DNA of 38,020 nt from Deltaproteobacteria bacterium (GCA_016283195.1 JAEEML010000087.1:1-38020), one strand, 5' to 3'. Positions 2,505-34,050 are shown, counted from the first letter of the stretch. Notes: generated by a model not told the origin, from the letters alone. Translations and numbers: made by a program.

Positions 2505-4475
2505 TCAAACTGAAAGGCCGCTTAGCCGCTCTTCCTCGCGCATAAGGCCATATTCCCAGATTTTTTCGCTCCCATAAACAACAAAGCGCTTTTTGGCTCT
2601 GGTGGCAGCGGTATATAAGAGTTCTTTGGTGAGCAGAGCATTCTCTTTTTCTGGCAAAAGCAAGAAGACCTCCTGCGCCTCCGAGCCTTGGGATTTATGC
2701 ACTGTAATGGCATGAGCTAAAGTCAGGTGATCGGCCAGAGAAGTTAGCGGATAAGCCGCCAAACGGCCCTCTTTAATAAATATGGCCATGGGCTCCGGTT
2801 CCATGCGCCCGCTTTTTACCAGAGCGATAAAACCGACATCACCGTTATAAATATCATGCAAATAATCGTTTTTTGTGCACATTACCGGCTCGCCGACAGT
2901 AAAAAAAGCGCCTTTTTTATTATATACGGAATGCAAAATCTCATTTACCTTTATATCGCCCATGCGTCCTTCATGGCCGGCAGTCAAAATCAGCTTGGCG
3001 CTAATGAGCTCGTTAATGGCCAAAAGCTGCTTTTCATCTTCCGCGCTAAAGCCGTTTTCGCCGTAACAAAATATTTTATATTCCCCCCCGCCATCTTTTA
3101 ATTTTTCATCAATTATATTGCGCCGCTGCTTGGCGTGGTGCAAAAGGTTCCGCATAAAATCGGCTTCGCTAAAAAGCGCCGCATCAAGGAAGAAAGCACC
3201 GTTTTCTTGAAAAACGGCGGCCGGCTCAAGCGCCGTTTCGCCCTTGGGCCAGGGCTTATCATGCAAAATAGCGGCGGCCAAAGCGGGAATAGCCAGGCCC
3301 ATAGGGCTGATATTTTGCCCGCTGCGATAATTACCGCTTAAGGTCACAGCGTGCTCTTTCTCCCGCCAGGCGGCATAGAGGTCCTTAAAAATAGCAGCCG
3401 CGCCCACCGGCGGCAATTGATGGGGGTCGCCCACTAAGAGCAGGAGTGTTTTATTGCCAATAGCGCTAAAGAGGCGTTCCAGCAAAAAGAGATCGATCAT
3501 TGAAGCTTCATCAACAATAATAAGGCGCGCCGGCAGGGGATTATCCGGGCCGTGAGCAAAGCCCGCTTTAGGATTAAAGCCCAAAAGGCGATGCAAAGTA
3601 GAAGCCGGCGCCAGGCGGGCCAGAAGATCTTGGTCGCTTGCCATGGGATCTTGCACAGCGCGGATATTATTTTGCAAAGCTTCCATAATGCGGGCCGCCG
3701 CTTTGCCGGTGGGCGCGGCCAGAGCAATGGCTTCCGGCGGAAAAACATCGCCGATACTGGCCGCTAGGCGCACAATAGTGCTGATAACGGCTGTTTTTCC
3801 GCTGCCTGGGCCGCCGGCCAAAATAGAAATCCGCCTGGATAAAGCCATATCAAGCGCTTTTAACTGCTCGGCCGAGAGCTCTATGGGGCGGCCGTTCACT
3901 ACGGCGGGATGAGCCAAGAGTTCGGCCAGCTTTTCTTTTCTGGTAGCGGCGCATTTAGCCGAGTTGTCAAATGGTTTTTTCAGGCGCTCTATATGCTCTT
4001 CAAGAGAAATAAGCGTGGAAAAATGGCGGCTAATATAAATAGCGCCCCGCTCTTCTCTTAGAAATGGCTGATTGCCCTCCTCTGCTTCTTGCCATAAAGG
4101 CCGGCCGAAAATTTCTTCCGGCCGCTTTTGGGCCAAAAGTTCGCTAGCTACGCCGGCCAGCTTTTTAGCGGAAAAGCCGCTAGCTGCATTACCGAGAAGG
4201 CGCGCGAAAAGAGCGGGGATTTGCTCTTTGGGTAAGCAAATAGAGCCCCTGCCGCGCACAGTCAAAAGGGCGGAAAAGAGTAAAAAAAGCGCTTCTTCTT
4301 CCTCCTTACCGAGATTGCTCGCGCCGGCAAAAAGCCTAATGGGCTCAGCGACTAAAAAGAGGCTCTCTGGAGTAGCCCCCAAGTAAGCAATATTGGGACT
4401 TATGGCCGCCGCCAGGCGGGCAAGATGGTCCGGAAGAGTGGCCAAATAGTCGGCTATAAGATTTTCTTTATTCAT
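2505..4475 (-). CDS. recD: Exodeoxyribonuclease V subunit alpha (RecD helicase)
   Basis: Walker A GGPGSGKT, AAPTGKAAAR, STLHRLLG, IVDEASMID, GDPHQLPPV, AITVHKSQGSE and LLYTAATRAK; ATGA-coupled to recB. Confidence 0.95.
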   Translation of the reverse strand: MNKENLIADYLATLPDHLARLAAAISPNIAYLGATPESLFLVAEPIRLFAGASNLGKEEEEALFLLFSALLTVRGRGSICLPKEQIPALFARLLGNAASGFSAKKLAGVASELLAQKRPEEIFGRPLWQEAEEGNQPFLREERGAIYISRHFSTLISLEEHIERLKKPFDNSAKCAATRKEKLAELLAHPAVVNGRPIELSAEQLKALDMALSRRISILAGGPGSGKTAVISTIVRLAASIGDVFPPEAIALAAPTGKAAARIMEALQNNIRAVQDPMASDQDLLARLAPASTLHRLLGFNPKAGFAHGPDNPLPARLIIVDEASMIDLFLLERLFSAIGNKTLLLLVGDPHQLPPVGAAAIFKDLYAAWREKEHAVTLSGNYRSGQNISPMGLAIPALAAAILHDKPWPKGETALEPAAVFQENGAFFLDAALFSEADFMRNLLHHAKQRRNIIDEKLKDGGGEYKIFCYGENGFSAEDEKQLLAINELISAKLILTAGHEGRMGDIKVNEILHSVYNKKGAFFTVGEPVMCTKNDYLHDIYNGDVGFIALVKSGRMEPEPMAIFIKEGRLAAYPLTSLADHLTLAHAITVHKSQGSEAQEVFLLLPEKENALLTKELLYTAATRAKKRFVVYGSEKIWEYGLMREEERLSGLSV

Positions 4476-7400: not shown

Positions 7401-8161
7401 GCTGAGAGCAGCGGCCTGGAAAGTTTTGTATTAGGGAATTTTTTTTGCGGCCTAAGCGCGTTAATAATATCTGCTATTTCAAAAGCCGCCCGGAAGATAA
7501 GATCAATATTATCCTTATTTTCCGCTCTGTTATAGATAGATGGCTCTAAAGGTGATTTATAATCATGAGTAGCTGTCAGCAAAGAGCTTAAATGGCCAAG
7601 AAGTTTTTCGCCGGAAGAACTTTGCAAATATTTGGCCAAAAGATGGTAGGCATAAGCATCGCCATAATCCTCCGGCCGCCCTTCGGCTACCGCGCGCAAT
7701 GTATTGGAAAGCGCCGTTTTTAAATAATTTTTTTCATCCACCAGGCGGTCGCTTAAAGCCTTGCCGGAAAGAATGGGAAAGGAGGCCAAAATAGAGCGAC
7801 AAAAGCCGTGAATGGTGTTGATATTAACACTGTCAAAGTTATTTATGGCCATTTTAAGCCGCTCGCGCTCCTTGGGGCCGATTGCCCAATAAGCACTCTC
7901 CGGCTTTTCGCTGTTTTTAACTCTTAATAACTCATTCAGGCGGCTTCTGATGCGCTCTTTCAGCTCCTTGGTAGCCAGTTCGGTAAAAGTCATGAGCAAT
8001 ATTGAAGAAATATCATGCCCTTTAATAACTAAATCGGCCACCATTGAAGCCATGGTATATGTTTTGCCGGTGCCGGCCGAAGCCTCTAGGAGGACATAGC
8101 GGCTATCCCCTATTTTTCCAAGAATTTCCGGGCGCTTCACATAATAAGTGTTATTATCCAT
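4472..8161 (-). CDS. recB: Exodeoxyribonuclease V subunit beta (RecB helicase/nuclease)
   Basis: EASAGTGKT, TFTELATKEL, TIHGFC, IDEFQDTD, VGDPKQAIYAFRGAD, TMHKAKGLE and YVALTRAK, plus the nuclease motif GYIDLLF...DWKS. Start is ATG 8161 (TGATG overlap, AGGAG upstream) or GTG 8164. Confidence 0.95.
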   Translation of the reverse strand: MDNNTYYVKRPEILGKIGDSRYVLLEASAGTGKTYTMASMVADLVIKGHDISSILLMTFTELATKELKERIRSRLNELLRVKNSEKPESAYWAIGPKERERLKMAINNFDSVNINTIHGFCRSILASFPILSGKALSDRLVDEKNYLKTALSNTLRAVAEGRPEDYGDAYAYHLLAKYLQSSSGEKLLGHLSSLLTATHDYKSPLEPSIYNRAENKDNIDLIFRAAFEIADIINALRPQKKFPNTKLSRPLLSALGLIAGESLSMEEKLAVIVSDFRTSALELLPDLRDKNLITLQQEATYIAALKKIPSLYSCVIELLDEQVKQELSRLKFLDGATSFDDLLKVVDEKLAAKETGPLFCKKLREKYPVCLIDEFQDTDPCQWSIFKSIYLSAEAQKEAVALYLVGDPKQAIYAFRGADVNTYLIAREFLASIPGSKQLFLDTNYRASGEMVSAINGLFAQETPETSFFKGKITYPKEQLKANYIAIENYLAVPGKESCHLPPLVIAADNSAAGKLSAGVLKKRYGRWLAQYIKEMLLNPPLVVSNDQGKQPLRARDIYILGAKRDELQQMATYLAEYQVPYVYYKEGGLFSGDEVLDFIDLLKAIAAPYDEKKRLKALIGPFFNVPLTEVAKFKELPANHPIVSRLISWQQLAEHHNFAALMADIMDKSGIAVRLLALKESHRELKAYWRIAAILAGEAAEKDGELSDLIEILYQYVEGKRLLENPDADSRPQESGKDAVTLLTMHKAKGLEAQVVAIYGGFSNPKYPNFGCPVIWTYGQNGKRCLYITKKEIEIDYAPPAGSLEILLSEARGEKERLMYVALTRAKRQLILPTWDDKALGSGSKNHLGQSYCQLINERLNELLKRPDEELKKLINTYDITLFNPWSKEAYELRVRALPRQINAANAIEEAAGEQPPAELTSPESLINSFLGQKEHFAGPLITSYTRMKKAAEQYDYSRADDDIDISDYLAPKSAASADSALPKGANFGNLIHKILEKLDYRILLAEPGAPDAAAFISFAEWQERCSADLAAICQLYHFDYLNFKDELDALIYRTLTRQPLLAAGPGFCPFGALKSSQRRHEVEFYYPIRSAELSAEVMEQFSDITVEKGYVKGYIDLLFEYEGKVYVLDWKSDTLPAYDEQSLKAHVAENYAIQIALYSLALYKMLLLEGKNSPQNAYNRFGGLIYCFVRGEKQGEGLYFVRPSFAEIEENYHRLGVSDTLAAGSNK

Positions 8162-11100
8162 CACTTACTCCTGCCCCAAAACGGTGCAAAACGGCGCTTT
8201 ATCAGCTCCCTGGCCATTGTTGCCGGCGGCGGCGGATAAGTGCGCGGATGAGGGACAAATTTATGATTATCGGATGAAATGCTTTTATTTTGGCCCAAAT
8301 CTTCATACCAATCGTCAATAATTCTCTGTATGGCATTTTCCGGAGATGAAGCCGAGGACTTCTGCATAATTTTTTCAACAAGTTCCACCGGAAGCAAATA
8401 ATCGTGCTTAGTTTCGGCCATCTCAGGGAACAAATTATTAAGCCAGCTTTTGGCTTCTTTAACTTCATTAAAACTAAAAAAACTTATAGACGGATTACCA
8501 TTTTTAATAGCAATAATGCAGGGTTCACCTATAATCTTTGCTTTGCCGGTGACCAAAAGAATAGCACTATCAACAGCGGCCATAATTAATTTCTTAAGCG
8601 TTAACTTACTTTTTTCCTTGCACAAAATCAGCGGGTGCATGCCCTCGGCAATAAAAGGAACCGTAAGGCCGCTAAGAGAAAAAGTTACTTTATCCGCCCA
8701 GCCGTTAAAATCAACCTGGTACGGCTTTTCGGCTATCTCTTCTTTGGGAATGGCGGCATAAATATAGCGGCGGCTGATGCGCCGGCCCAAGCGATATTGG
8801 CACACCTTAGGGAGCCTCGGAAATTCTTGGTGAAAAGCGGCGTAATAGGCCTGCCAATCTTTTTTTATCTCGCCAGCGGCACATTCGCCAAAGAGGGCGG
8901 TGGGCATTTGGCCGATCTCGCGGTAATAAGCGAGGCGGTTATCTATTATAGCTAGCAATTCTTCTTCCGCTGCGCCCAAAACGAGCGGCCCAAGAAGATC
9001 TTTTTCCAGTTCAGAATCTAAAAAATCCCACTTTTCCAGCGGCGGATCATCATGATCTTTATAGCTCTCATAGCGCTCCTCCGCCAGGAGGCGGCCGCCG
9101 CTGAATTGCAATGGACAAGAGAGAAAATCATAAATATCTTTATTGGTAAATTCAATAATAGGCGGGATTTTGGGCCGCTCACGCGGGGCACTCCACATTT
9201 CCTCCGGCTTGGCATCTGCCTGCTTTAATAAAAATTGCCTACGGGCCAGTGCCTCTTTATAAGCCGCGCATGAAAGCAGCGGTTCATTACTGCTAAAGAG
9301 TTCGGCGGCATAGCGTTCCTCGGGCCAAATGTGCAGTAGGCCAATTTCTAAGGCTTTTTTATCGCGTTCTTCTTCTTTTTCATCCTCTATATGCCGATAA
9401 ACTGTGGCCACCATCTCATATAACTCGGCATAAAGATTACTCTTTAGCTTTTGGTCGCCGGTTAGCTCGTCTTTACTTACATAGCTTAAAATAGCCCCCT
9501 TTTGCACCATGGTGAGCATTTCCAAAAAGTGGTACATCTCCCATTCGCGGCGCTTTATATCATAAGGTCGGTGGTCGTTATTGCGTAAGTCCAGGGGCCT
9601 ATCGCTCTTGGGCGAAGGAAAGTCGCCGCTATTTAAGCCAACAAAATAAACATATTTAAAATTACCCGGCCGCAGGGTTTCTATAGCCCCCACACTCACC
9701 CCCTCGGTGATAGGCGTAAAAGGCGGGGTATTTATTTTGTTAAGCTCCTCACAAAATAGTTGGCGTGTCAGCTCAAAAGAGAGCTCAAGATCCGGGAGCG
9801 ACAATTTAGCCAGAGAATCCAAAGCCTTGAATATTTTATGTAAATGGCGCTCTTCTTCTTCGTTTTCCACCTTGATGAAAAGCTCAAAATACTCTTTTAA
9901 AACCGGCCCCCAGGCCTCCAGGGTAAGACGCGCTTGGCGCAATATATTGGCCTCTTTTATCAGCACGCGCACCAAAAGGCCAAAGGCACTTATTGTTTCA
10001 GCCGCGCCTTCGGCCAGTTCCAGAGGATAGTAGGGAAAATCATTAGCCAAATATGGTTTTGGTTCATAATTATTTCCGGGCAGATACCAGCCCAAAACAG
10101 CTCTTTTAAGCCCCTGCTCCCAGTTGTAGAGGTCAGCCGGGCGACTGGCGGGAGTTACCATTTTTTCCACCATATCGGCGCCGGAAAAAATGGCCAGCCT
10201 TTCGCAAAAAAGTTCAAAGGCTTCGGCATCGGCCCCGGGAAAAAGGCGACAAATAAAGGGGCTTTTAAGCACTTTCAGCATGGTGCTGCGTTTAAAATTA
10301 CTAAAGGGCACTTCCAGAAGATTTAAAATCAACTGAAAGAGCGGCTTGCCAATAAGTGGCTGATTTTGCAAATAAACCAGCGGTATCTCCGCCTCCTGCA
10401 TTATTTGCTTTAAAGGCACATTGTAATTGGCTCCGGCCTCGCCGCCGGGCAGAACAATAGCTATATCGGCAAATGAGAGCTCCTCGCCCCGCTTTCTGGC
10501 CGCTAAGAGTTTATAGCGAATATCCGAAGCAATAGACTCTACTTCGCGCCTTATGGTGGGAGCTTGCCAAAAGCGGAGGGAATCATCGGCGGCGCTATTT
10601 TCTGCTAAGCTCTCTTTATAATTTTCCGCCGGTAAAAGCCGGCGATTTAAAATATCGGCCTGAAAAGCGCTTAAAAGCGTCGCTTTTTCCGCATCCTCAG
10701 CTCCAAAAGCGCTGTCGTCCAAATTATATTCACAGAGGCTGCTTATCGCCTTTATATACTCTTTGCCCCCGGCTCCCCACAAAACGAGAGCGGCCGGCTC
10801 ACCTTCGGCGGCTGCCTCCCCCTCTTCGGCCATAAGGGCTTTTTTGCCGGTTTTTAAATCTTCCCAAAAAACTTTACAGGGATTTATGGCATAATAATAG
10901 AGCTCTACTCCGGGAACTTCCCCCAAAAGCTTAAAAAAATCAGTAAAAAGCGGCTCAGTATATAAAACGCCAAAAATATGCACATTTAAAGGCAAAAACG
11001 GCGCCAAAAGTTCCGCTATTGTTTCCGGTTGCAATAGTTCGCCCAAAGTTAGCCAGGCCGCCTTACTCTCGCCTTCGGCATTTAAAGTGTCACGCAAGCC

Positions 11101-11658
11101 GCCGGGCATAAAAATGGCCCGCCAGATAGCTCGTTGCCAAATTTCATCGTTATCTTGGGTGGCGAGTTTGCCTGCACACCAGGCCGCTATCATCTGCGGG
11201 CGGGTTAATTCGTAGTCGAGAAAAAGATTGGTTAGCGTTTTGGCCAGTTCAATACATTTTAAATCGTGGTCGCGCTCTTCTTCTATATGCTCTTCGGCTT
11301 CGGGAGCACTTTCGCTATGTAAATATTTGCTAATAACTTCCAGCTCCGGCGCAGCTAAAAATTTTTTATCCAGGAGGAGTTTTAAAATCAGCTGGCACAG
11401 AAGATCGCCCAAAATAAGGCGCTTATCCGTGCCTTCCTGGCTGAAATAGCGGGCTAAAAACTGCTTTAGGCCCAAAATGGTCTCAAGGCCACTAAAAACG
11501 CCCACACGCCTCGCCAGTTCCAATTTACATTTGGTGGCAATATAATTATTGGGCACCACCAGAGCGGTATTATTAAAAAGCGTGTCATTTTGACTAATTG
11601 CCTTAGATAGTTCATTATAAAGAGAGCCCACATCGGCGGCAACAAAACAGTGAATCAT
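8161..11658 (-). CDS. recC: Exodeoxyribonuclease V subunit gamma (RecC)
   Basis: 1165 aa with VVPN, WQRAIWR, NPCKVFWED, LWG..GK, FQADIL, RREVE, W..GL.R..LG and GLNSGDFP; no Walker A; GGAGG RBS; first gene of recC-recB-recD. Confidence 0.9.
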   Translation of the reverse strand: MIHCFVAADVGSLYNELSKAISQNDTLFNNTALVVPNNYIATKCKLELARRVGVFSGLETILGLKQFLARYFSQEGTDKRLILGDLLCQLILKLLLDKKFLAAPELEVISKYLHSESAPEAEEHIEEERDHDLKCIELAKTLTNLFLDYELTRPQMIAAWCAGKLATQDNDEIWQRAIWRAIFMPGGLRDTLNAEGESKAAWLTLGELLQPETIAELLAPFLPLNVHIFGVLYTEPLFTDFFKLLGEVPGVELYYYAINPCKVFWEDLKTGKKALMAEEGEAAAEGEPAALVLWGAGGKEYIKAISSLCEYNLDDSAFGAEDAEKATLLSAFQADILNRRLLPAENYKESLAENSAADDSLRFWQAPTIRREVESIASDIRYKLLAARKRGEELSFADIAIVLPGGEAGANYNVPLKQIMQEAEIPLVYLQNQPLIGKPLFQLILNLLEVPFSNFKRSTMLKVLKSPFICRLFPGADAEAFELFCERLAIFSGADMVEKMVTPASRPADLYNWEQGLKRAVLGWYLPGNNYEPKPYLANDFPYYPLELAEGAAETISAFGLLVRVLIKEANILRQARLTLEAWGPVLKEYFELFIKVENEEEERHLHKIFKALDSLAKLSLPDLELSFELTRQLFCEELNKINTPPFTPITEGVSVGAIETLRPGNFKYVYFVGLNSGDFPSPKSDRPLDLRNNDHRPYDIKRREWEMYHFLEMLTMVQKGAILSYVSKDELTGDQKLKSNLYAELYEMVATVYRHIEDEKEEERDKKALEIGLLHIWPEERYAAELFSSNEPLLSCAAYKEALARRQFLLKQADAKPEEMWSAPRERPKIPPIIEFTNKDIYDFLSCPLQFSGGRLLAEERYESYKDHDDPPLEKWDFLDSELEKDLLGPLVLGAAEEELLAIIDNRLAYYREIGQMPTALFGECAAGEIKKDWQAYYAAFHQEFPRLPKVCQYRLGRRISRRYIYAAIPKEEIAEKPYQVDFNGWADKVTFSLSGLTVPFIAEGMHPLILCKEKSKLTLKKLIMAAVDSAILLVTGKAKIIGEPCIIAIKNGNPSISFFSFNEVKEAKSWLNNLFPEMAETKHDYLLPVELVEKIMQKSSASSPENAIQRIIDDWYEDLGQNKSISSDNHKFVPHPRTYPPPPATMARELIKRRFAPFWGRSK

Positions 11659-11793
11659 GGAAACCTCCCTTTGGAGAGATAGCTATTATTTAATGAAATG
11701 ACAAGAGGAGCTAATAAATTTAATATGAAATTTTTAATTTATTTTCTAAGTTATAATACCGCACTTATTGCCGGAAAAGCGGCCTAACACTTT

Positions 11794-12330
11794 TTACCCG
11801 GCGCCGTGCAGAATTTTCTCAGCTATATATTTAATGGCTTCTTCAGCATTTTCGGCGGCAAAGACCGAATCAGACCTAGTAGTATCGAGCGGCTCCCCGG
11901 CCACTTTGGCGGCCCAGCCGCCAGCTGGTACTAGCGCGGCTACCGGGCGCCCATATTGCCAGGCCATGGAGATTTCCGACAAAGTGCCAGACATACCACC
12001 AACGGCGATAACGCCAGAACCAGCCATAACCACCAAGGCGTTGCGGGCTACTCCCATACCTGTCGGAATGCCCACTTCTATATACTGGTTAGCGGCTTTT
12101 CCTGTTTCGTCCTTTAAAATGCCCACAATGGGCAGGTGGGTAATACCCAGGCGCACCTTGGCTTCCGAGGCACCTTTGGCCGCCGCTTCCATTACCCCGC
12201 CATAACCGCCGCAAACCAAGCCGAAACCGTGTTCTATAATGGCACTGCCCACATTGTAAGCTATTTTATAAGTGGGCTCGTCGATCCAACGCCCGCCGAT
12301 AACCGATATAAGCTGCACTCTTCTTGTCAT
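11794..12330 (-). CDS. TIGR00725 / LOG-family (SLOG) nucleotide-binding protein
   Basis: ISVIGG, LVCGGYGGVMEAAAKGA, TGMGVARN and GGMSGTLSEI motifs. Confidence 0.85.
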   Translation of the reverse strand: MTRRVQLISVIGGRWIDEPTYKIAYNVGSAIIEHGFGLVCGGYGGVMEAAAKGASEAKVRLGITHLPIVGILKDETGKAANQYIEVGIPTGMGVARNALVVMAGSGVIAVGGMSGTLSEISMAWQYGRPVAALVPAGGWAAKVAGEPLDTTRSDSVFAAENAEEAIKYIAEKILHGAG

Positions 12331-13298
12331 AAATCATCCTCAAATGTTTCGTAATAAATGCTAATCTTGTTTAAGCGCTCTTCATTATAGCAAAAGGCGG
12401 TATGCACTTTGCCAAAGGTATATATGAGTACCATTTCACTCCCAAAACGGTTAGAATTTTTTAAAAGAGTATAGTTTTCACCGTAAAGTGCCCCCAGGAC
12501 ATCGGTGGTGCTATCCCAAGCGGGCTCGCTAAATCCCAGCGGATAATTAAAGGTTATTTCATTAATAAAGCCGCCGCCGGCCCCTTCTATATGACCACTC
12601 ATAGTAAGACCATAAAGGTAATAACTATCAACAAAGCAGTTATAGGCACCACAAGCTTTTTGGGTAGAAATATCGGCGTTGCCTAAAATCAACCAAACTA
12701 AAGAGCGCTGATACGGGCCACCATCCAGGGGAATTTGCCCCAAAATCAGCTTATCATGGCCGGCAGTCAGTTTGGTCGGCGGTATAGCTCCCGGCCAAAA
12801 GATGGTTATGCTGCTCACCAAATCGGCCGTAAACTGAAAAGCCACACCAAGGTCCCAAAAAAGCAATACCGCTTTATCGCCCCAGACAAAGGGGGAGCCA
12901 GCGGCCGCAATTTCCATACCCGGCCCAAGGGATTTAATAATATCGCGGCGGTGCGTGCCAATACCAAAACCTTCCGCGCTTTTGCTCTTGCAAGTAGCGC
13001 CCACCGAAAGGGCTAAAAGGTAGTCCTCGCCATCTAACTGACCGTTGCTGTTGCTATCGGCAAAAAGAGCTCGCACATCTTCATCATAGCGGAATAAGAG
13101 CTCTTTATCGCTAAGGCGCTGCGGCGGGGCAAAAAGGCGGGTCAGCGTTTCATAAGAAGTGCCCAAAATAAGCCGGCGACCATAAAGCCAGAGGCTGCGG
13201 CCAAAAACCAAATCTTCCTGCCGGGAAGCAGAGCCGGACTGGCCGGCAAATCGCACCTCAGGCCACTCTTGGCAAGCACCAAGGAGCAATAAAAGCAT
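12327..13298 (-). CDS. Hypothetical lipoprotein
   Basis: Hydrophobic stretch ending in lipobox LGA-C; EF-hand-like DSNSNGQLDGED; repeated G-x-G...LG-P segments. Start uncertain (ATG 13298 chosen; ATG 13370 would overlap the kinase by 56 nt). Stop is ATGA-coupled to the next gene. Confidence 0.6.
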   Translation of the reverse strand: MLLLLLGACQEWPEVRFAGQSGSASRQEDLVFGRSLWLYGRRLILGTSYETLTRLFAPPQRLSDKELLFRYDEDVRALFADSNSNGQLDGEDYLLALSVGATCKSKSAEGFGIGTHRRDIIKSLGPGMEIAAAGSPFVWGDKAVLLFWDLGVAFQFTADLVSSITIFWPGAIPPTKLTAGHDKLILGQIPLDGGPYQRSLVWLILGNADISTQKACGAYNCFVDSYYLYGLTMSGHIEGAGGGFINEITFNYPLGFSEPAWDSTTDVLGALYGENYTLLKNSNRFGSEMVLIYTFGKVHTAFCYNEERLNKISIYYETFEDDL

Positions 13299-13314
13299 TA
13301 TAATGAGATACGGT

Positions 13315-15762
13315 TTAGAAATCGGTATCGATAAGCTTAACTTCCTCGCCGTTTTGCACGTTTTTAACATGTTTTTTGGTCTTGCTACCGTTAACGAGAG
13401 TAATGGTTACTTTCCCGGCGGGGATAGTCAATTTAAATTGCGGAACAGTTTTCCCGGTATCTTTGCCGTTGATAAAAATCTTGGTGCCCGGTGATTTCGG
13501 AGTATGCACTTTAAGAATTGCCGAGCCGGTGGCAGCCGGGGCCTTAGTAGCCGGCCTGGTGGTTTTGCCGGACGTTTTACCGCCGCTCCTACCGGAAGCT
13601 ACGGCATGCTGCTTCACCAAACTGATATTCATGGAAGCAGTCTCGCCGTTAGCCGGCACAGTAAGGCTTTTCTTCTCGCGATTAAAGCCTTCCTTGGTAA
13701 TGACAATAGTCACATTTTTTCCGGAAGGCTGGGCAAAATTACAAGGAGTCACACATTGTTGCACATTATCAACATAAACCAGAGCTCCCATAGGCTCGGA
13801 ATTTATGGCGATATTGCCCATAGCGGCAGCCGGCGGCGGGGGCGGAGGCGGCGCGGCCGGAGCGGCCGTTGCCGCTTCGGTCGGTGCAACAGGGGCACTG
13901 GGCACCTGCTGAGTAGCTACCGGTTGCGTGGCTACCGGCTGCGTAACAGGAGCAGTTTGCACCTGTTGTTGGGGAACTCCTTGCTGAGCACTTCCCTGAT
14001 TCGGCTGAGCCAGAGCCGCCGGTTGCTGGCGCTGGGTGGCTGTCGCCACCTGCTGCATTGCCTGAGGTTGCTTGGTTCCAAGACCACCCGGTTGCAAGCG
14101 ATGCACCAAAGAGAGCGGGCGCCCGGGAAAAGCACTGGCACTAAAAACCGCTTCCTGATAACCTGGAGCTCTTAAAACAATAGTGTGGTCACCGGGCATC
14201 AAATCCTGTTTGACAAACGGCGTGGACTCAGAAACTTTAATATCATCAATAAAAACTGCCACCGGCACATCCGGGGGAATAGTCTCAATACGCAAGGAAG
14301 CGTAATTTTGGGAATTTCCCGGAGAAAGCACCAGATAAAAAAGCAAAAAGCCAAAGAGCAGGACAATAGCCGCGCCTAAAGCTATAACTAAAGTCATGGT
14401 GCGGTTTTTCTGCTGCGCCATTGCCGGCGGATATTGAAAACCGGCAGTGGTGTTGGGATAAAATTGCCCGCTGTTATAGCCACCCATCATCGGCGGCTGC
14501 ATCGTGCCGCTCATTTGCGACATTATCTGCGGCGCCTGAATAATACCGGTGGGCATGGAGCTTAGATCCATTTGCGGCTCAGGCTGGCGCTGACGCTGCC
14601 CACCGCGCCCGTGATTGCTGTTACCTACACTGCTGCTGCCACTATTACTGCCGCCGCCCTGCATAGCCGAAAGAGCATTAGATTCAAAAATAACCGTCTT
14701 TTGCTCACCGACATCATCGTCATCATTATTGCTACTTGAAGAGGCATAACCATGGCTGGCTCTGATCTCTTTGGCGGCTTCCGGCGGCGGCTCGGTGATC
14801 TTGGCATATTCCTCCATCTTGGCCGCTTCGGCTTCTATATCTTCGGCATAAGCATCTTTCAAAAAGTTAGAAAGCTTTTTGGCGGTAAAAACCGTGCCGT
14901 CCATAATGAGGAATTGTTGCAAATCCTCGGAAAAGTCGGAAGCCCATTGATAGCGCTCGTCTCTATCTTTGGCGAGAGCCTTCATAATGACCCGTTCCAG
15001 CTCCGGCGTGACATCCGGATTTATCTGGCTGGGTGGAATGACCTCGGCATTGCGCACTTTATCCAAGGTGGAAAAATCGCTCTCCCCCACAAAAAGGCGC
15101 TTGCCGGTGACCATCTCGTAAAAGATAACGCCCACGGCAAAAATGTCACTGCGGTGGTCAATAGCCATGCCGCGCACCTGTTCGGGCGACATATAGCCGA
15201 ATTTACCTTTTAATACACCGGCCTGAGTTTTACTGGCCCGGTCTTCGGCTTTGGCGATACCGAAATCGAGAACTTTAACGGCCCCCTCATAACTAACCAA
15301 AATATTTTGTGGGCTGACATCGCGGTGGACAATATTTAGCGGCTTACCTTGAGCATCGGTCTTGCGGTGAGCGTAATCGAGGCCATCGCATACTTTAGAG
15401 ATGATATAGGCAGCTTGGGCCAGGGGCATAATGGCTTTGGCTTTACGGAAACGATCCAAAATCTGCCTTAAATCGCGGCCGGAAACATATTCCATGGCAA
15501 TATAGTAACTCTGGTCATGACAACCGAGTTCGTATATCTGCACGATATTGGCATGGTTCAGCTGAACAGAGATACGCGCCTCATCAACAAACATGTTGAT
15601 GAATTCTTCATCTTCAGCCATATTGGGCAAAATGCGCTTGATGGCCAGGATTCTGGAAAATCCTTCAACACCGAAGGATTTGGCCTTAAAAATCTCGGCC
15701 ATGCCACCGACATTGACCCGCTCCAGAAGATAATAGTTACCAAAAGGAATTGGATTAACCAT
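13315..15762 (-). CDS. Membrane Ser/Thr (Hanks-type) protein kinase with C-terminal PEGA domains, myxobacterial type
   Basis: FGNYYLLERVNVGGMAEIFKAK, LAIKRI, HRDVSPQNIL, DFG and KFGYMSPEQ; one TM helix (TLVIALGAAIVLLFGFLLFYLVL); PEGA-like repeats (IETIPP..AVFIDD..TP; INSEPMGALVYVD..TP); Gln/Pro-rich linkers. Confidence 0.92.
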   Translation of the reverse strand: MVNPIPFGNYYLLERVNVGGMAEIFKAKSFGVEGFSRILAIKRILPNMAEDEEFINMFVDEARISVQLNHANIVQIYELGCHDQSYYIAMEYVSGRDLRQILDRFRKAKAIMPLAQAAYIISKVCDGLDYAHRKTDAQGKPLNIVHRDVSPQNILVSYEGAVKVLDFGIAKAEDRASKTQAGVLKGKFGYMSPEQVRGMAIDHRSDIFAVGVIFYEMVTGKRLFVGESDFSTLDKVRNAEVIPPSQINPDVTPELERVIMKALAKDRDERYQWASDFSEDLQQFLIMDGTVFTAKKLSNFLKDAYAEDIEAEAAKMEEYAKITEPPPEAAKEIRASHGYASSSSNNDDDDVGEQKTVIFESNALSAMQGGGSNSGSSSVGNSNHGRGGQRQRQPEPQMDLSSMPTGIIQAPQIMSQMSGTMQPPMMGGYNSGQFYPNTTAGFQYPPAMAQQKNRTMTLVIALGAAIVLLFGFLLFYLVLSPGNSQNYASLRIETIPPDVPVAVFIDDIKVSESTPFVKQDLMPGDHTIVLRAPGYQEAVFSASAFPGRPLSLVHRLQPGGLGTKQPQAMQQVATATQRQQPAALAQPNQGSAQQGVPQQQVQTAPVTQPVATQPVATQQVPSAPVAPTEAATAAPAAPPPPPPPAAAMGNIAINSEPMGALVYVDNVQQCVTPCNFAQPSGKNVTIVITKEGFNREKKSLTVPANGETASMNISLVKQHAVASGRSGGKTSGKTTRPATKAPAATGSAILKVHTPKSPGTKIFINGKDTGKTVPQFKLTIPAGKVTITLVNGSKTKKHVKNVQNGEEVKLIDTDF

Positions 15763-27966: not shown

Positions 27967-29076
27967 GTGGCGCAAAAAAGCGAATATCATCAAACACTTT
28001 CGGCCTTTGAAGCCGCTGCTATCAAGCTGGTACTGGCCGGCGATTCTGTGGTTGATTGGAAATATTTACCCTTAGATAGCCTGCCGGCGGCCAGGCAACT
28101 TCTGGAAATCAACGGCTATGATTTGGAAGATCCGCTCGACCGCGAACATTTGACCGATATGTACCGCGAAGCCGTGCTCTATTTAACAGATATTCACGGC
28201 TACCACATGCCCCTGGAACTGGAACACAGCGAAGATCTGCTGCGCCTCTTCTCCTGGGCCGCCAAATTGGAAGAGGCTTCTCCGGAGCTGGAAACACTTT
28301 CCGGCATGCTCTTAAAAGTCATCAGCGTGCTCAATTATCTTTCCGCCCGCGAGCTGCTCTTTCGCCTGCCCATTTCCGAAGAAGAGCTAAATTCGCGCCT
28401 TTCCGCTAAAATATTTAGTCAAATGGAGCATTTGCAAGATCATACCAACTTGGTTGAATTTGCCACCGGCCAAAAAAGCCGCTCCAGTATGCTCTCCAAG
28501 CTCCTCGTTAAAGCCGAAACTCAGGCCAGCCATATTTTCGATGTTATTCGTTGCCGCATTGTGGTGGAAAACAAAGCCGACCTCCTGCCGGCTTTGCAAT
28601 TTTTATTAAATAATCTCATACCTTTTAATTATATTTCCCCCGGAGAGTCCAAAAATAATCTCATTCCTTTGCAACTAATCCGCCCCTACGATCATCTGCC
28701 GAGCGAAGAGCGCATTATGGAATTTTTAAATAATTTCAGCGGGCGCAATAGTCACAGCGACGCCGCCGGGCGCTTAAATGAGTTTTCCGGCCCCACTTTT
28801 CGCTCTATCAATTTCATCGCCTCCATTCCCCTAAGGGTTGATGAAATTTTGGAACTTTTAGACCCAACAGTGGCCGATGATTTTGGGCGCGTCATTTTAA
28901 CGCAGATGGAAGTGCAGCTTTTAGATAGGCAAACAGCCATTGAAAACGAGAGCGGCGCCAACTCACACCACGCTTATAAAGCCAGGCAATTACAAAGAGT
29001 TCGCCAACGCATAGAGGTAGCTCGCGACCCCGATTTACCGCCTCTTGAACGCACCGATTTAGACAGCGAAGAGTAA
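27967..29076 (+). CDS. TIGR04552-family protein with RelA/SpoT-like nucleotidyltransferase motifs
   Basis: L.G.SVVDW, K...S..SKLL.K, IFDVIRCRIV, PFNYISPGESKNNL, NEFSG..FRSINF, PLRVD, EVQLLD and NESG.NSH..YK.RQ are the motif series I associate with TIGR04552. Confidence 0.75.
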   Translation: MAQKSEYHQTLSAFEAAAIKLVLAGDSVVDWKYLPLDSLPAARQLLEINGYDLEDPLDREHLTDMYREAVLYLTDIHGYHMPLELEHSEDLLRLFSWAAKLEEASPELETLSGMLLKVISVLNYLSARELLFRLPISEEELNSRLSAKIFSQMEHLQDHTNLVEFATGQKSRSSMLSKLLVKAETQASHIFDVIRCRIVVENKADLLPALQFLLNNLIPFNYISPGESKNNLIPLQLIRPYDHLPSEERIMEFLNNFSGRNSHSDAAGRLNEFSGPTFRSINFIASIPLRVDEILELLDPTVADDFGRVILTQMEVQLLDRQTAIENESGANSHHAYKARQLQRVRQRIEVARDPDLPPLERTDLDSEE

Positions 29077-29108: not shown

Positions 29109-29138
29109 TTGCCAAGGCGTGTGGGTATATCCTATACT
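29109..29138 (+). promoter_or_regulatory. Candidate sigma70 promoter of the paralog triplet
   Basis: TTGCCA-18 nt-TATACT with an AT-rich upstream tract, followed by a short hairpin (CGGCAG/CTGCCG, 29143-29158) and an AGGAGG RBS. Confidence 0.5.
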
Positions 29139-29178
29139 TGCGCGGCAGTTTGCTGCCGGTATGTGTCAGGAGGTTTTA

Positions 29179-30978
29179 ATGGTTAGCGGAATTAGCGGGG
29201 GCTCCAATTGGGACCTAAATATCCAGAGCGAAGAGCTGGGGCGGGCACAAAAAACTCAGCAATTAGATGAATTAAACCAAGAAGAAGCCTTAAAAGGGCT
29301 CGAAGAGCAAAGGCAGCTGGAAGCCAGTAAAACGCCCAGTGACGAAGACTGGGCCAAAATTACCGACGAGTTCAAATCCAGAAATGTAGAATTCCAGTTC
29401 GACCCCAACGAAGCGCCCTATCAGTTGCAACTTGATAACGCCGGCAAGCTGGTTGATAATGATATAAATTTTAATATTTCCGCTTCACTGACGCGTGATT
29501 TGTATAATATGGTTGTCGATTCGGTGGCCGAACTCGCCAAAGCGGCCATGACAAACGACGAAGCCATAAAAAGCGCCGATGTAGCCAGCCGCCAAAAAGA
29601 TCAGGATTTTGCCGCCGAGTGGCAAAAAGCCGTGGTGGATGAAGCTCTTAAAGCCACCAGCGACACCATCCGCGAGCTGGCAACGCAGGATTTAGCAAAA
29701 GACGAGCGCTTAAAAAGTGCTGCCCCGCGCCCGCTGCCCAAAGTGGAAGAGAGCCAGAATACTCAGTCGGCCAGAGCACTGCGCATTGATGACCCGCGCC
29801 AGCGTTTTGCGAATATAATGCCCATAAATCGCCCGCAGGAACCCAGGCCGGTTACCAAAACCGATAAAAGTGCCGAAGCGCAAAAAGCCCCGAAAGATTT
29901 TTCGCTTTCTGCCGACCTGCGCACGCGCATGATGCTGGGCAATCAGCGCCTGGCCGCCGCCGGAGCCGGAGTCGGAGCCGAAAAACCGGTGCCACCCGCC
30001 AATAAGAGCACCGCCACCAGCCAAACAACCAGAAACCAAAGTAATAGACCATTACAAAACAGCAGCGCAGCCAGCTCGGCCAGCCAAGCCAACAATGAAG
30101 CCAGGCTGCCACTAAATCTGGCCGAAAAGTGCTCTGCAAGATTTGCTTCCTTCATGGCCGAAGCGGCTACTTACGGCTTTTCTATGGACATAAACGGGCT
30201 CATCCAGTTTGTCATCCGCGAGGCCTATTTGCAAGGACTTGAAGACATCGTTTATGTGCGCGACAAAGTGCAATATAACATTGCTGCCAAAAAAGTGCTG
30301 CGCGCCGCTTTAAACGATGCCAGAAGCGAAGAGACGCGCGTAAAAACCAAAGCCGCCGAAGATTTAAGAGCTGTTTATGCCAAACATGATGAGGATATTG
30401 CCGCTGAGCATGCGCGCGTTGGCGATGCCAGATGGAACGGCGCCAATATCAGTGATGACGAAATAGATGAAATTATAAATAATTATTACAACTACAATAA
30501 CTCCACCGGGCAATATCGAGCTAAACAATATGGGGTGGATCCATCAGATTATGATTCCATCGAAGAAGTCAGGGCAGCTTTTAGAGCCTCACCTGCTTTA
30601 ATTGAGGAAAAGGGCACTTATGAAGCCGCTTATAAGAGTGCTCACCCCTATGACCCTCCGGCAGATAAAGCCGAACAATGGCTCGATGACAAAGCCAATA
30701 GCTATCTTGAGGGCTTTAATGCTTTGGTACTCGATCAAAGTCAGGATCCGCCGCAAATGGTTAAAAGCCAAAATACCACTATCAAAACTACTAAAGACCT
30801 TGAAGACCACATCAAAAGCATGGAAGAGACCCTGGCCTCTTTGGGCGACGATGCCCAGCTTTTAAACACCGATTTACAAAGCGTGATGCAAAAGCAACAG
30901 GAATTCATCAATATGCTCTCCAATGTCAGCAAATTACTCAGCAATACAGCTCTGGCTGTCATCCGCAAGATAGGTTAA
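29179..30978 (+). CDS. Hypothetical protein, paralog 1 of 3 (candidate T3SS-type filament/tip subunit)
   Basis: AGGAGG RBS before MVSGISGGS; shares central and C-terminal blocks with the next two ORFs and ends LGDDAQLLNTDLQSVMQKQQEFINMLSNVSKLLSNTALAVIRKIG. The CDS itself is secure; the function is inferred. Confidence 0.8.
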   Translation: MVSGISGGSNWDLNIQSEELGRAQKTQQLDELNQEEALKGLEEQRQLEASKTPSDEDWAKITDEFKSRNVEFQFDPNEAPYQLQLDNAGKLVDNDINFNISASLTRDLYNMVVDSVAELAKAAMTNDEAIKSADVASRQKDQDFAAEWQKAVVDEALKATSDTIRELATQDLAKDERLKSAAPRPLPKVEESQNTQSARALRIDDPRQRFANIMPINRPQEPRPVTKTDKSAEAQKAPKDFSLSADLRTRMMLGNQRLAAAGAGVGAEKPVPPANKSTATSQTTRNQSNRPLQNSSAASSASQANNEARLPLNLAEKCSARFASFMAEAATYGFSMDINGLIQFVIREAYLQGLEDIVYVRDKVQYNIAAKKVLRAALNDARSEETRVKTKAAEDLRAVYAKHDEDIAAEHARVGDARWNGANISDDEIDEIINNYYNYNNSTGQYRAKQYGVDPSDYDSIEEVRAAFRASPALIEEKGTYEAAYKSAHPYDPPADKAEQWLDDKANSYLEGFNALVLDQSQDPPQMVKSQNTTIKTTKDLEDHIKSMEETLASLGDDAQLLNTDLQSVMQKQQEFINMLSNVSKLLSNTALAVIRKIG

Positions 30979-30988
30979 GGAGAAGGCC

Positions 30989-32494
30989 ATGGTCAGCACC
31001 AATTATAATTATAGAGTTCCCGTTTATACCGAGCCGGTAACAACAGCTCCCGAAGTACAAACACCGGCCGGGGAAGTAGCTACAGAGCTCACTACCGAAG
31101 AGATTTTAGCTACCGTTTTCACCAAAATGCTGAACGATGCCGTAGCGGCCGACCCGGAATGGGCCGATCTCTCGCAGCGCCTTAATGCTCAAGGCAAAAA
31201 CAGCCTGGAAATAGATCTTGAAGATTTCGGTATTGATTTCAATGAGCTGGCGGCCAATAACGCTCCGGATGTTTTTGTTCCGGCCTCTCTTTTAAAAGCC
31301 CAGCAAGAGCTCGCCGACCTAGTGCTCGATACTGCCAAAGTGGCCATGGGCGAAACGCTTTCTAAAGCCGATATGCAAAAAATTGCCGGCATTGAAAGCG
31401 CCCCTTGGCAAGAGGCCGTGATTCAATATGCTTTTAGCATGAACCCGGCAGCCATTGATACTAAGCCGGCCGAAAAACCCACTGCACCCTTAAGCAAAGA
31501 TATTCACCGCGAAGTTAAAAGCCAGGCCCCGCTTCTCGGCACCTTTAGCGTCAGCAGTATGCTGACCACCGCCCAAGCCAAACCGGCCGAAAAGAAAATA
31601 ACCAGTACGCCCAAAGCGCCGCCGCCGGTTAATCTGGCTAATTATAAAAGCGCTTCTTTACATAGCCAATTTGCGGCTACTCATGCCGCTGCTAAGGCTC
31701 CCGCCCCAAAGAGTGAATCGGCAGATGCCATAGAGGCCAAAACCGGTGTTTTGAATTTAGGTATGGCCCGGGCCGTATCTGCTAAATTCTCTTCATTTTT
31801 AGCTACTTGCGCGGCAGACGGCATTCCAACCAATGTTTATGACATTGTGCAGTGGGTTTTGCGCCAGGCCTATATGGAAGGCATTGAAGATTTAGTCTAT
31901 CGCCGCGACAAAGTAATGCTGGCCAATAAAGCCAAAGAGGCCCTGCGCAAAGAGGCGGCGGCAGCCAGAGCGGAAAAAACGCGCATAAATGCCGAAGCAG
32001 CGGCTTATGTCAAAGATCTTGTCACCAACTACCCGGCCATGCGGGAAGCCAAAAAGAAAGAGCTGGAGGCCGAAGCCGAAAAGAAATATCCTTGGTACAA
32101 ATACCCATTGTCCAAAAAAACAAAGCGCAATAATTATGTAAACGATAACCTGGAAGCATGGGAAAAAACCCATAAACCAACTCCGGAAAATATCACCAAA
32201 AATCTGGATAGCAAAAAGGACGAACTGACCAGCGTCGGCAAATATGTCCTCGATATGAACCAGAATCCGCCTAAGATGATAAAGAGCGGTAAAAAATGTT
32301 CTTCTATGGCCGAGCTGGATGATTATATCAAAGAGCTGGAAAATAAAATGTCCTCCATCGGCGACGATGCCCAGCTTTCCAATGTTGACTTGCAAACGGT
32401 GCTGGAAAAGCAACAGGAGCTCATAAAAACCCTCTCCAACCTCGGTAAACTACTCCATGATACGGCGCTCGCCATCATTCGCAAAATAGGTTAA
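30989..32494 (+). CDS. Hypothetical protein, paralog 2 of 3
   Basis: TAAGGAG stop/RBS coupling; starts MVSTNY and ends IGDDAQLSNVDLQTVLEKQQELIKTLSNLGKLLHDTALAIIRKIG. Confidence 0.8.
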   Translation: MVSTNYNYRVPVYTEPVTTAPEVQTPAGEVATELTTEEILATVFTKMLNDAVAADPEWADLSQRLNAQGKNSLEIDLEDFGIDFNELAANNAPDVFVPASLLKAQQELADLVLDTAKVAMGETLSKADMQKIAGIESAPWQEAVIQYAFSMNPAAIDTKPAEKPTAPLSKDIHREVKSQAPLLGTFSVSSMLTTAQAKPAEKKITSTPKAPPPVNLANYKSASLHSQFAATHAAAKAPAPKSESADAIEAKTGVLNLGMARAVSAKFSSFLATCAADGIPTNVYDIVQWVLRQAYMEGIEDLVYRRDKVMLANKAKEALRKEAAAARAEKTRINAEAAAYVKDLVTNYPAMREAKKKELEAEAEKKYPWYKYPLSKKTKRNNYVNDNLEAWEKTHKPTPENITKNLDSKKDELTSVGKYVLDMNQNPPKMIKSGKKCSSMAELDDYIKELENKMSSIGDDAQLSNVDLQTVLEKQQELIKTLSNLGKLLHDTALAIIRKIG

Positions 32495-32505
32495 AGGAGT
32501 TCAAA

Positions 32506-34050
32506 ATGGTTAGCAGTATCGGCTCTTCTTCTATTTACGATCAATATGCCAATTATCAGTGGCCGCAGTCAAATGCGCCCCAAAATCTGGAGGCTCTTTC
32601 CGATGAAGAAATTGCTAAATTAAATATAAATATAGATGATAACGACCCACTTAAAGATCTCGCGCTGGAGGAGCAGGAGGCTCTCTTTGCCGCTATTTTT
32701 GATGCCACTTATAATGAATACATCATTAATCAAAACGCAAAGACAGCCGCTGCCATTGATCCAGAACTTAGGGAATTAAAACAAAAATTCAGCGAAATGG
32801 GTTCTTCTTTTTCCTTTAACCAGGAAAAGCACGCTCTGCCGGAAATGAACGAAAAGGGCGAAGTCACCGAAAGCGAAGAAAAATATTTTATTCCCGCATC
32901 GCTCTTAAACGAAAAAGCGCTCCTAGAAATAGCCCTCGTAGATGTCTTTAAAGCCGCTTTAGGGCAAGCCGGTAATACCATAAAAGCGGCCCGCCCTATC
33001 GACCTGCCGGCCTGGCAGGAGGAGTGCGTCGCCGAAGCGCTCGGCAAAAGTGCCGATATTATCGACACCACGCCGGTGGTGCTCTCGGAGAGCGAACGCT
33101 TTAGGCCAATAGATAAAGATATTTCCCGGCGCCTCGACAGCACGCGCACTCAGGCCGGCGTTTTTACGCTGAAAAGCGCCATGACCGGCCGGGGCGCCAT
33201 TAAAGATACCCCCAAAGAGCCGGTAAAAAACGATGTCTCCGCTTTTGCCTCTTTTGCGCAAAAAAAGCCGGATATTTCCATTGAAGTGAAAAAGCCGGAA
33301 AATGCCGTTGCCGCTTTTGCTGCCGCCAGCGGTGGAGCCGGAGCCGCTTCGGGCCTTAAGATCACCATCAATTACAAAGGGCCGAAAATTCCTTTTAATA
33401 CCGCCCACAATGCCTGCGGGCGCTTCTCCAGCTTTTTGGCAAATTGCGCAGCCGGTGGCATACCGACAGATATCAACGCTCTAATTCTCTGGGTGCTCAG
33501 AGAGTCTTACAAAGAGGGCATGAATATTTTGGTTGATGTGCGCGAAAGAGTGAAATTTTTCAACAACTTAAAGAGCCAGATCCGCGATGTTTTGAAAGAT
33601 CTTAACGCAGCCAAGACCAAATATACCAAGGCGGCCACCGATAATGCCATAGAAGAACGCAAAAAATATGTAGAGGAGCATAAAAACGATAACGAAAACA
33701 GCGATGCCAACAGCGCCGGCGCCGAGTTTGACCGGGAATCTTATGATGCCGTTTACGGCCAATATGACATCAGCGCCGAAGGGCTTACCCGTTATTGTTA
33801 CAACGATAGTTATACCGGCATACCGGCCACTGTCACCAAAGGCGGCAAAGAAATTAAAACCATGAAGGAGCTGGAATCTTATATCAAAGAGATGGAAGGC
33901 AAGCTCTCTTCCATAGGCGATGACGCGCAGGTGCAAAATATCAATTTGCAAAATGCCATGCAAAAACAATCGCAGCTCATTCAAACTCTCTCCAATTTGC
34001 AAAAACTTTTGCACGATACCGCCCAAGCCATTGTGCAGCGGCTTTCATGA
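32506..34050 (+). CDS. Hypothetical protein, paralog 3 of 3
   Basis: TAAAGGAG stop/RBS coupling; starts MVSSIGSSS and ends IGDDAQVQNINLQNAMQKQSQLIQTLSNLQKLLHDTAQAIVQRLS. Confidence 0.8.
   Translation: MVSSIGSSSIYDQYANYQWPQSNAPQNLEALSDEEIAKLNINIDDNDPLKDLALEEQEALFAAIFDATYNEYIINQNAKTAAAIDPELRELKQKFSEMGSSFSFNQEKHALPEMNEKGEVTESEEKYFIPASLLNEKALLEIALVDVFKAALGQAGNTIKAARPIDLPAWQEECVAEALGKSADIIDTTPVVLSESERFRPIDKDISRRLDSTRTQAGVFTLKSAMTGRGAIKDTPKEPVKNDVSAFASFAQKKPDISIEVKKPENAVAAFAAASGGAGAASGLKITINYKGPKIPFNTAHNACGRFSSFLANCAAGGIPTDINALILWVLRESYKEGMNILVDVRERVKFFNNLKSQIRDVLKDLNAAKTKYTKAATDNAIEERKKYVEEHKNDNENSDANSAGAEFDRESYDAVYGQYDISAEGLTRYCYNDSYTGIPATVTKGGKEIKTMKELESYIKEMEGKLSSIGDDAQVQNINLQNAMQKQSQLIQTLSNLQKLLHDTAQAIVQRLS

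Follow-up and report, generated by a model that had tools for sequence, protein, structure and literature searches.

Three tandem paralogous genes with a needle/tip-like C-terminal helix as candidate type III secretion substrates in a deltaproteobacterial genome

The stretch of DNA analyzed here, called the window throughout, comprises 38,020 nt (JAEEML010000087.1:1-38020, from assembly GCA_016283195.1) and belongs to a Deltaproteobacteria bacterium whose genome of 3.2 Mb in 190 contigs is referred to below as the host genome. [quoted passage not shown]

29109..29138, + strand: sigma-70-like promoter candidate TTGCCA-18-TATACT, 10/12 matches, 5' of gene A
29179..30978, + strand: gene A, 599 amino acids (aa) from ATG, AGGAGG ribosome site at 29168-29174
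30121..30336, + strand: gene A block 1, residues ~315-386, first hairpin arm with invariant columns, predicted helical by analogy with the gene B model
30799..30975, + strand: gene A block 2, residues ~541-599, putative needle/tip-like C-terminal helix
30989..32494, + strand: gene B, 501 aa, AAGGAG ribosome site just 5'
31772..31981, + strand: gene B block 1, residues ~262-331
32315..32491, + strand: gene B block 2, residues ~443-501, putative needle/tip-like C-terminal helix
32506..34050, + strand: gene C, 514 aa, AAGGAG ribosome site just 5'
33412..33621, + strand: gene C block 1, residues ~303-372
33871..34047, + strand: gene C block 2, residues ~456-514, putative needle/tip-like C-terminal helix

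The three genes are tightly linked, as the preliminary description had stated: they are spaced by only 10-11 nt on the same strand, each is preceded by an AGGAG-type ribosome site 5-8 nt ahead of its ATG, and each encodes a protein that begins with MVS followed by a Ser/Thr/Asn/Gly-rich stretch. Gene A has an alternative start at the GTG at 29119, which would give 619 aa. The promoter candidate that had been placed ahead of gene A is present; it is weak, because sites of this kind show no enrichment in the region relative to shuffled sequences (12 vs 8.0 +/- 2.7). The paralogy of the three proteins is far beyond chance (27-32% identity, pairwise phmmer E-values of 1e-28 to 1e-46), and alignment reveals in all three the ordered blocks that had been described, including the pattern GDDAQL..N.DLQ...QKQ...LSN..K....TA.A in block 2 of gene A. 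Hydropathy scans, which are a heuristic and not a trained predictor, found no 19-residue window with a mean Kyte-Doolittle hydropathy of 1.6 or more in A, B or C, in line with the earlier statement that the trio has neither a Sec signal peptide nor a transmembrane helix.

No Pfam or NCBIfam model reached its cut-off on A, B or C. A word-indexed search returned 10 relatives only. When 1.84 billion representatives were searched in full with a profile, 1,982 matched at E<=0.001, 1,420 at 1e-10 and 505 at 1e-30; among the 150 matches listed, lengths span 154-1,206 aa. Relatives that bear a name are called 'hypothetical protein' in every case. Judged by these profile matches, the trio is part of a large family that has no name and comprises about 2,000 clusters. 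The family core, derived from 50 aligned short members, consists of a variable N-terminus, block 1 (consensus W..F...GG.DVNALVQ.VLRESY...DL.FYA.KVKFFN..KK.IR.EL..AR), a variable linker and the C-terminal block 2 (consensus L..YI..LE..L.S.GDDAQLANVDLQN.LQKQQQT.Q.MSNISKML.DTA.AIIRKIG). In the AlphaFold model of a core member (mean predicted local distance difference test score, pLDDT, 80), an antiparallel hairpin is built from two ~60-residue helices (135-195 and 248-309), which are separated by a small beta element; in the gene B model (mean pLDDT 68), the first 245 residues are poorly ordered and the helices at 283-366 and 440-500 are confident. Because both models show it, a pairing of blocks 1 and 2 in a helical hairpin, which the preliminary description had anticipated, is predicted. 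Among the nearest 30 clusters in the ESM Atlas, 27 are unnamed families and three fall, with a score of 0.93, in a cluster labeled 'Secretion protein EspA', of which only 27% of members carry PF03433, so that these three serve as a lead only. Complex prediction with the hairpin halves of A, B and C gave a score of 0.00 against a mark of 0.32, was run with no controls, and speaks neither for nor against binding.

Beyond the trio, the host genome encodes four to five further relatives that the preliminary description had not seen. C13 carries a second tandem paralog cluster, whose third gene (3480-5120) matches PF07481 (DUF1521) with an E-value of 4.3e-10; C94 encodes a 268-aa form of the family (E 8.9e-12 to gene C), and a 183-aa form encoded on C65 is more distant. 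In the C13 cluster, one in-frame TAG (1501-1503 of locus L005) divides the first paralog (L005, 391-1806) into a 370-aa portion with block 1 and a 101-aa portion with block 2. Family genes are multi-copy (at least seven per genome) and are dispersed away from the apparatus genes.

For block 2, direct comparison with needle proteins gave weak results, and a chain of profiles gave a much stronger one. When the needle family model PF09392 was run on the host genome at E<=1, it matched only family members. The C94 paralog gave end-anchored matches to PF09392 (E 1.5e-4, 22.3 bits; cut-off 29.4) and to TIGR02105 (E 0.0017, 18.7 bits; cut-off 41.7). A canonical needle, with PF09392 over its cut-off, was found in 0/17 related genomes; sub-threshold PF09392 matches were present in 12 of the 17, located C-terminally in frames 294-922 codons long, and these needle-like tails end in ..IRNIR, ..IIGNIRA or ..ITQNIR. 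From such tails and the C65 protein we built profile A11, which contains no sequence of the trio, C13 or C94. At E<=1, 29 of the 34 matches of A11 in the PDB are T3SS needle or tip chains, the remaining five being YefM antitoxins and a nucleoporin; the needle and tip rows include PrgI-SipD (9.9e-6, the best), IpaD (0.002), MxiH (0.004) and YscF (0.02). A related profile, A9, in which C94 and one more tail were added to A11-type tails, gave T3SS needle/tip chains in 30 of 34 matches. Searches of the PDB with the whole-protein profile A1 returned noise only, and the best T3SS row of the trio-type C-terminal profile A4 (a 43-residue chain, 7y6c) had an E-value of 0.053, which is too weak alone.

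The link back to the trio was made by profile-profile alignment. Profile A10, built from the C-termini of the trio and the C13 paralogs, aligned in hhalign with A11 at 95.7% (E 8.9e-9) over 59 columns that reach the last residues, and the 50-member family profile A5 aligned with A11 at 96.2%. Controls were low throughout: reversed A11 gave 0.3-0.7%, 20 column shuffles gave at most 1.5%, and three unrelated neighbor families gave at most 0.4%. On the strength of this controlled profile chain, we take the C-terminal helix of the trio, which the preliminary description had likened to needle and filament helices by appearance, to be a distant homologue of the T3SS needle/tip helix. The proteins themselves are outside the SctF, SctA and EspA families as these are defined.

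The host genome encodes an export apparatus of the non-flagellar kind. Its one FHIPEP gene scores 835.8 bits on the SctV model TIGR01399 (cut-off 692) and 691.6 bits on FlhA (cut-off 772), and SctU, SctJ, a FliG-like gene, SctL and a SctN truncated at a contig end are also present, scattered across the genome; no flagellin and, with PF09392, no canonical needle gene were found in it. The SctV protein shares 80-84% identity with SctV of eight family-holding genomes and 62% with SctV of a 10-Mb genome in the same phylum, the phylum being that of records titled Myxococcota. Because of the former identity, we infer that the organism belongs to a Myxococcota clade, with an apparatus that is probably like the 'needleless' T3SS* of Myxococcus xanthus. 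PMC12075869 (2025) describes T3SS* as working with Kil Tad-pilus tips and as being without secretin, needle and translocon, and states that its effectors are unknown. A profile search among 60 supposed relatives of the host genome (61 genomes in all) was discarded as uninformative on kin, because all 60 shared only the same domain with it. Besides Fib_succ_major domains, the host genome has Cys-rich repeats of the Myxo type, and its bin, with a stated contamination of 4.18%, may be chimeric.

Gene context in relatives adds to this picture. Among species-representative genomes, 145 relatives turned up, from which 79 loci were retained. Fourteen loci belong to SctV-positive genomes with records labeled Myxococcota, Bdellovibrionales, Deltaproteobacteria or uncultured bacterium and have the same arrangement, in which a conserved ~770-aa gene comes 22-250 nt after a ~300-aa family gene. 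Recurrent nearby are a 240-aa gene on the upstream side (11 loci), small tetratricopeptide repeat (TPR) genes (in 12 loci), and genes of the PilY1-like and GspH-like pilin kinds (seven loci each). In related loci, the family gene lies between genes for T3SS chaperones of the SycD/LcrH class: the TPR proteins score 90-117 bits on the SycD/LcrH class II chaperone model TIGR02552 (cut-off 104.8), and two of them, one on C188 of the host genome (117.1) and one at locus L031 (109.3), exceed the cut-off. The SycD-like proteins of the host genome are encoded at C188 3289-3855, C122 2445-2930 and C65 40239-40724. The host genome has a homologue of the 240-aa gene directly upstream of its C13 cluster and, on C65, a homologue of the 770-aa gene together with a locus that joins the 183-aa needle-tailed gene to a SycD-like gene. 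This last locus (L107 6159-10572, on C65) resembles a T3SS substrate operon, with genes for 105-aa, 183-aa needle-tailed, 161-aa SycD-like TPR, 103-aa and 803-aa proteins downstream of a Ser/Thr kinase gene, and only its TPR gene has a family match. A hydropathy scan found no hydrophobic or transmembrane segment in the conserved ~770-aa and 240-aa neighbors, and because they have no such segment they were rejected, by this criterion, as classical translocators (SctE/SctB-like).

The domains inserted in long relatives include DUF1521, EF-hands, a calpain-type protease and PF26745. As in the C13 paralog, DUF1521 is found in many relatives, where it lies between the arms of the hairpin. It is described in PMC6506597 as the calcium-induced self-cleaving domain of the T3SS-secreted proteins NopE1, NopE2 and VIC_001052. 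Calcium-dependent modules of this kind are typical in proteins that are exported, and calcium-triggered ones would fit proteins that are active after leaving the cytoplasm.

We suggest that A, B and C are T3SS-exported proteins built on a tip/needle-type hairpin, and that they are part of an expansion of such proteins in a Myxococcota clade without a canonical needle; we give this reading a probability of about one half. Export by the T3SS, assembly and action on a target would proceed as follows. The Ser/Thr/Asn/Gly-rich, signal-less N-terminus may serve as the T3SS export signal, followed by a poorly ordered, lineage-specific N-terminal half and by the long antiparallel hairpin, whose arms would be block 1 and the C-terminal block 2 and whose tip would bear a small beta element or a variable insert. 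The C-terminal helix would be a distant homologue of the helix that needle (SctF) and tip (SctA: IpaD/SipD) proteins use to dock and stack. As putative substrates of the non-flagellar type III export apparatus of the host genome, the proteins may, after export, assemble through the hairpin on or with other axial-type proteins of the clade's needle-less apparatus, and the variable N-terminal half, together with the domains inserted in paralogs and relatives, may provide target-directed or calcium-triggered activity outside the cell. The proposal of T3SS-exported subunits in the preliminary description is upheld only in part: the helix homology, the apparatus, the lack of Sec signals, the predicted hairpin and the chaperone context speak for it, but the filament or heteropolymer that it envisaged finds no support in the results, the trio belongs to no Pfam or NCBIfam family, and relatives also occur outside T3SS organisms.

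Several results weigh against T3SS export of the trio. The matches of the trio itself to the needle family PF09392 are far under the cut-off of 29.4 bits (gene A, 30784-30972, 13.3 bits; gene C, 33940-34041, 13.9 bits), and among the 50 core members generic coiled-coil Pfam families match at E<=1 as often as the needle family does (DUF4164 15/50, DUF1664 14/50, PF09392 13/50). Direct hhalign comparison of the family with EspA, EscF and EspB of E. coli O157 gave only 0.2-1.6%; this was a weak test, because the templates were single sequences, and no EspA profile was built because PF03433 (EspA) was over its cut-off in 0/300 genomes of the one gammaproteobacterial class sampled. In the structural comparison, Foldseek returned no PDB row at E<=0.001 for either the core or the gene B model, its weak rows being a mixture of AhlC/Smh/Mak/Xax/Nhe toxins, IpaD/SipD, flagellins, V-ATPase stalks, YscO and colicin E1, and a wide VIA-align search gave at best a Z of 8.9, to generic hairpins, under the level that the tool counts as meaningful for helical models. 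In the host genome, 0/3 secretins reached the SctC cut-off, which leaves the passage of substrates through the outer membrane unaccounted for. In the window, Pfam and NCBIfam scans found no chaperone or apparatus genes; the preliminary description had already said this of the apparatus.

The distribution of the family weighs in the same direction. The 79 loci come from 53 distinct genomes (counted from record names), of which 50 were tested, L056, L099 and L105 being left out. SctV is over its cut-off in 16 of these 50, a lower-scoring FlhA-like gene is present in 10 more, and no FHIPEP gene was found in the other 24, which include Thorarchaeota, Thermoplasmatota, another archaeon, Bacteroidota, Actinomycetota, Armatimonadota, Acidobacteriota, Gemmatimonadota and Rokubacteria; the family extends beyond organisms with a T3SS. 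In the phylum of G071, the one named above, the family occurs in 26 of 301 sampled genomes, with at least three matches in 21 of them. All 26 have FHIPEP, as chance would also predict, and the co-occurrence of the family with SctV in this phylum is uninformative because 266/301 genomes have FHIPEP (SctV is over cut-off in 175/301; both tallies take in G590, which is flagged unpublished). Signal-peptide-like N-termini, as called by a simple hydropathy rule in genomes that are not independent of one another, were seen in 10/23 members from genomes with no FHIPEP, compared with 4/12 from genomes with an FlhA-like gene only and 2/43, both doubtful, from SctV-positive genomes; the remaining members from genomes with no FHIPEP either are short and start at block 1 or are archaeal and carry a zinc-ribbon motif at the N-terminus. 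The hairpin module therefore appears to function extracytoplasmically in many lineages. The Sec signal appears to have been shed exactly where an injectisome-type gate is present, which is the best indirect argument for T3SS export.

The last 60 residues of the family are 70-87% identical across phyla and in archaea. The archaeal members (Thorarchaeota L092, L101 and L102; other archaea L073 and L093) have the C-terminal block at 70-80% identity and differ in their N-termini, which show a CxxC...CxxC zinc-ribbon motif in the three Thorarchaeota and, in a Thermoplasmatota record, a long coiled-coil region that is acidic.

These observations make it possible, at odds clearly short of even, that the family is a T3SS-independent extracytoplasmic coiled-coil hairpin, either a self-assembling scaffold or a calcium-activated toxin module, which is Sec-exported in most phyla and leaves the cell in the host genome by another route, such as Tad or type II secretion-like pilus machinery or lysis; its likeness to needle and tip proteins would then reflect old common ancestry or convergence and not present T3SS use. 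The genomes that hold the family with no FHIPEP, the signal-peptide-like N-termini of their members, the identity of the C-terminal residues across phyla and archaea, the presence of PilY1-like and GspH-like pilin genes at the conserved locus in seven related genomes and the lack of a T3SS secretin over cut-off all speak for such a hairpin. Against it speak the loss of Sec signals in SctV-positive genomes, the SycD/LcrH-class chaperone genes that adjoin members in those genomes, and a profile chain to needle/tip proteins that is specific against its controls. A broader version of the T3SS reading, which we offer as speculation and consider doubtful, runs as follows: the family might be the missing outer layer of the 'needle-less' T3SS* in a predatory Myxococcota clade, made of an expanded set of interchangeable, SycD-chaperoned tip/needle-helix hairpins that deliver variable or calcium-triggered domains to prey, and the needle/tip helix might be part of a pan-prokaryotic self-assembling hairpin module. 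Bacteroidota, Gemmatimonadota and others would export this module by Sec, Asgard archaea would have it fused to a zinc-ribbon, and the axial proteins of injectisomes would have been drawn from it, or have seeded it. The presence of the module in bacteria and archaea that lack a T3SS, at the identities given above, bears on the origin of the injectisome axial proteins.

Two further explanations fare worse. The trio could make up a pore-forming toxin that is alpha-helical and tripartite and belongs to the ClyA superfamily (AhlABC, SmhABC, MakABE, Nhe or Hbl type), in which three adjacent paralogous genes likewise occur, and the top weak Foldseek rows of the core model do include AhlC, SmhA/B, MakA/E, XaxB, NheA and Cry6Aa; however, these rows are not significant, because their E-values are 0.06-0.6 and their TM-scores 0.13-0.31, A, B and C have no hydrophobic head or tongue segment, and the C-terminal helix links to needle/tip proteins instead. 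Known members of the ClyA superfamily are Sec-dependent or of other layouts, which also counts against this explanation, and we regard it as very improbable. Least credible of all is that the trio proteins are never-exported cytoplasmic coiled coils, either stalk- or regulator-like proteins of the T3SS (SctO/FliJ-type) or cytoskeletal scaffolds, for although a missing signal peptide and VIA-align rows to the hairpins of YscO, FliJ, CT398 and CdsO (Z 7.5-8.7) would suit them, these Z-scores are within the stated noise for helical models, relatives in other phyla have signal peptides, calcium-triggered domains are among the inserts, and the genes are multi-copy and fast-diverging, unlike those of housekeeping scaffolds.

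In the window, the same-strand neighbors of the trio encode Lon, a TIGR04552-family protein, a CinA/MoCF-like protein and two VWA proteins, and none is a secretion gene. The gene directly upstream is the following.

27967..29076, + strand: upstream neighbor, TIGR04552-family protein, 276.7 bits (cut-off 125), with a weak RelA/SpoT-like nucleotidyltransferase match

No link between this gene and the trio emerged, and it is not among the recurrent neighbors of family genes in the 79 related loci. On the minus strand, four large open reading frames (656, 1,230, 1,165 and 815 aa) at 2505-15762 fill the first third of the window.

Among known systems, the EspA/SseB filament proteins (PF03433) share with the trio the lack of a signal peptide and a coiled-coil hairpin, which is predicted in the trio; EspA and SseB are secreted and extend the needle, and export of the trio would be the corresponding step here. 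However, the trio has no PF03433 match at E<=1, and hhalign against EspA of E. coli O157 gave 0.2%. NopE1 and NopE2 of Bradyrhizobium and VIC_001052 of Vibrio coralliilyticus resemble the C13 paralog and many relatives in carrying PF07481 (DUF1521/MIIA); A, B and C differ from them in having no match to this domain. With the needle proteins (SctF: PrgI, MxiH, YscF, EscF), the family shares a C-terminal pattern, LSN..K...D.....I.., that reaches the last residues, as well as the sub-threshold end-anchored matches and the profile chain to PrgI, MxiH and YscF. Unlike these helix-turn-helix proteins of ~70-90 aa, however, the trio proteins are longer by a factor of 6-8, the first hairpin arm of the family is internal and not N-terminal, the scores fall under the curated cut-offs, and hhalign against E. 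coli EscF alone gave 1.6%.

The tip proteins (SctA: IpaD, SipD, BipD) offer a possible parallel in layout. IpaD and SipD start with an N-terminal domain; a long central coiled-coil hairpin comes next, which carries a variable inserted domain between its arms and finishes with the C-terminal helix. The core and gene B models suggest a layout of this kind. Profile A11 matches the C-terminal helices of IpaD and SipD with E-values of 0.002-0.06, and family genes adjoin SycD/LcrH-class chaperone genes in related loci. The differences are that no tip model of Pfam or NCBIfam matches the trio, that Foldseek matches to IpaD/SipD have E-values of 0.1-0.6, and that the family is multi-copy, of ~150-1,200 aa, located away from the apparatus genes and found also in organisms that lack a T3SS.

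The analogy with Myxococcus that the preliminary description had drawn is apt in lineage and is limited by the small share of sampled genomes of the phylum that hold the family, 26 of 301. The family was not found (E<=1e-5) in most of the large genomes of the sample (9-13 Mb), in which proteins with needle-like tails are present. In three complete genomes of about 10 Mb from this phylum (G585, G568 and G613), a 71-codon, needle-sized frame ending in ..ITGNIR lies about 0.8 kb upstream of sctV (L140 17924-18139, on G585:C1), and a 189-aa Gly-rich protein ending in ..ISNVR, an orthologue of the protein encoded at 39575-40126 of C65 in the host genome, lies about 18 kb from sctV (L140 959-1528); both are at the same places in all three. 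Should these three genomes belong to the M. xanthus type, needle/tip-like proteins encoded in the 'needleless' T3SS* cluster may have been overlooked. The host organism appears to resemble M. xanthus in lineage and in apparatus type, its genome having neither a secretin over cut-off nor a canonical needle, and PilY1-like and minor-pilin genes stand beside the family locus in seven relatives. The trio and its family offer a concrete candidate set for the substrates or outer parts of the 'needleless' T3SS* in predatory myxobacteria, one that is suggested by the needle/tip-type helix and the lack of Sec signals and, in the relatives, by SycD-like and pilus-tip neighbors and calcium-triggered inserts.

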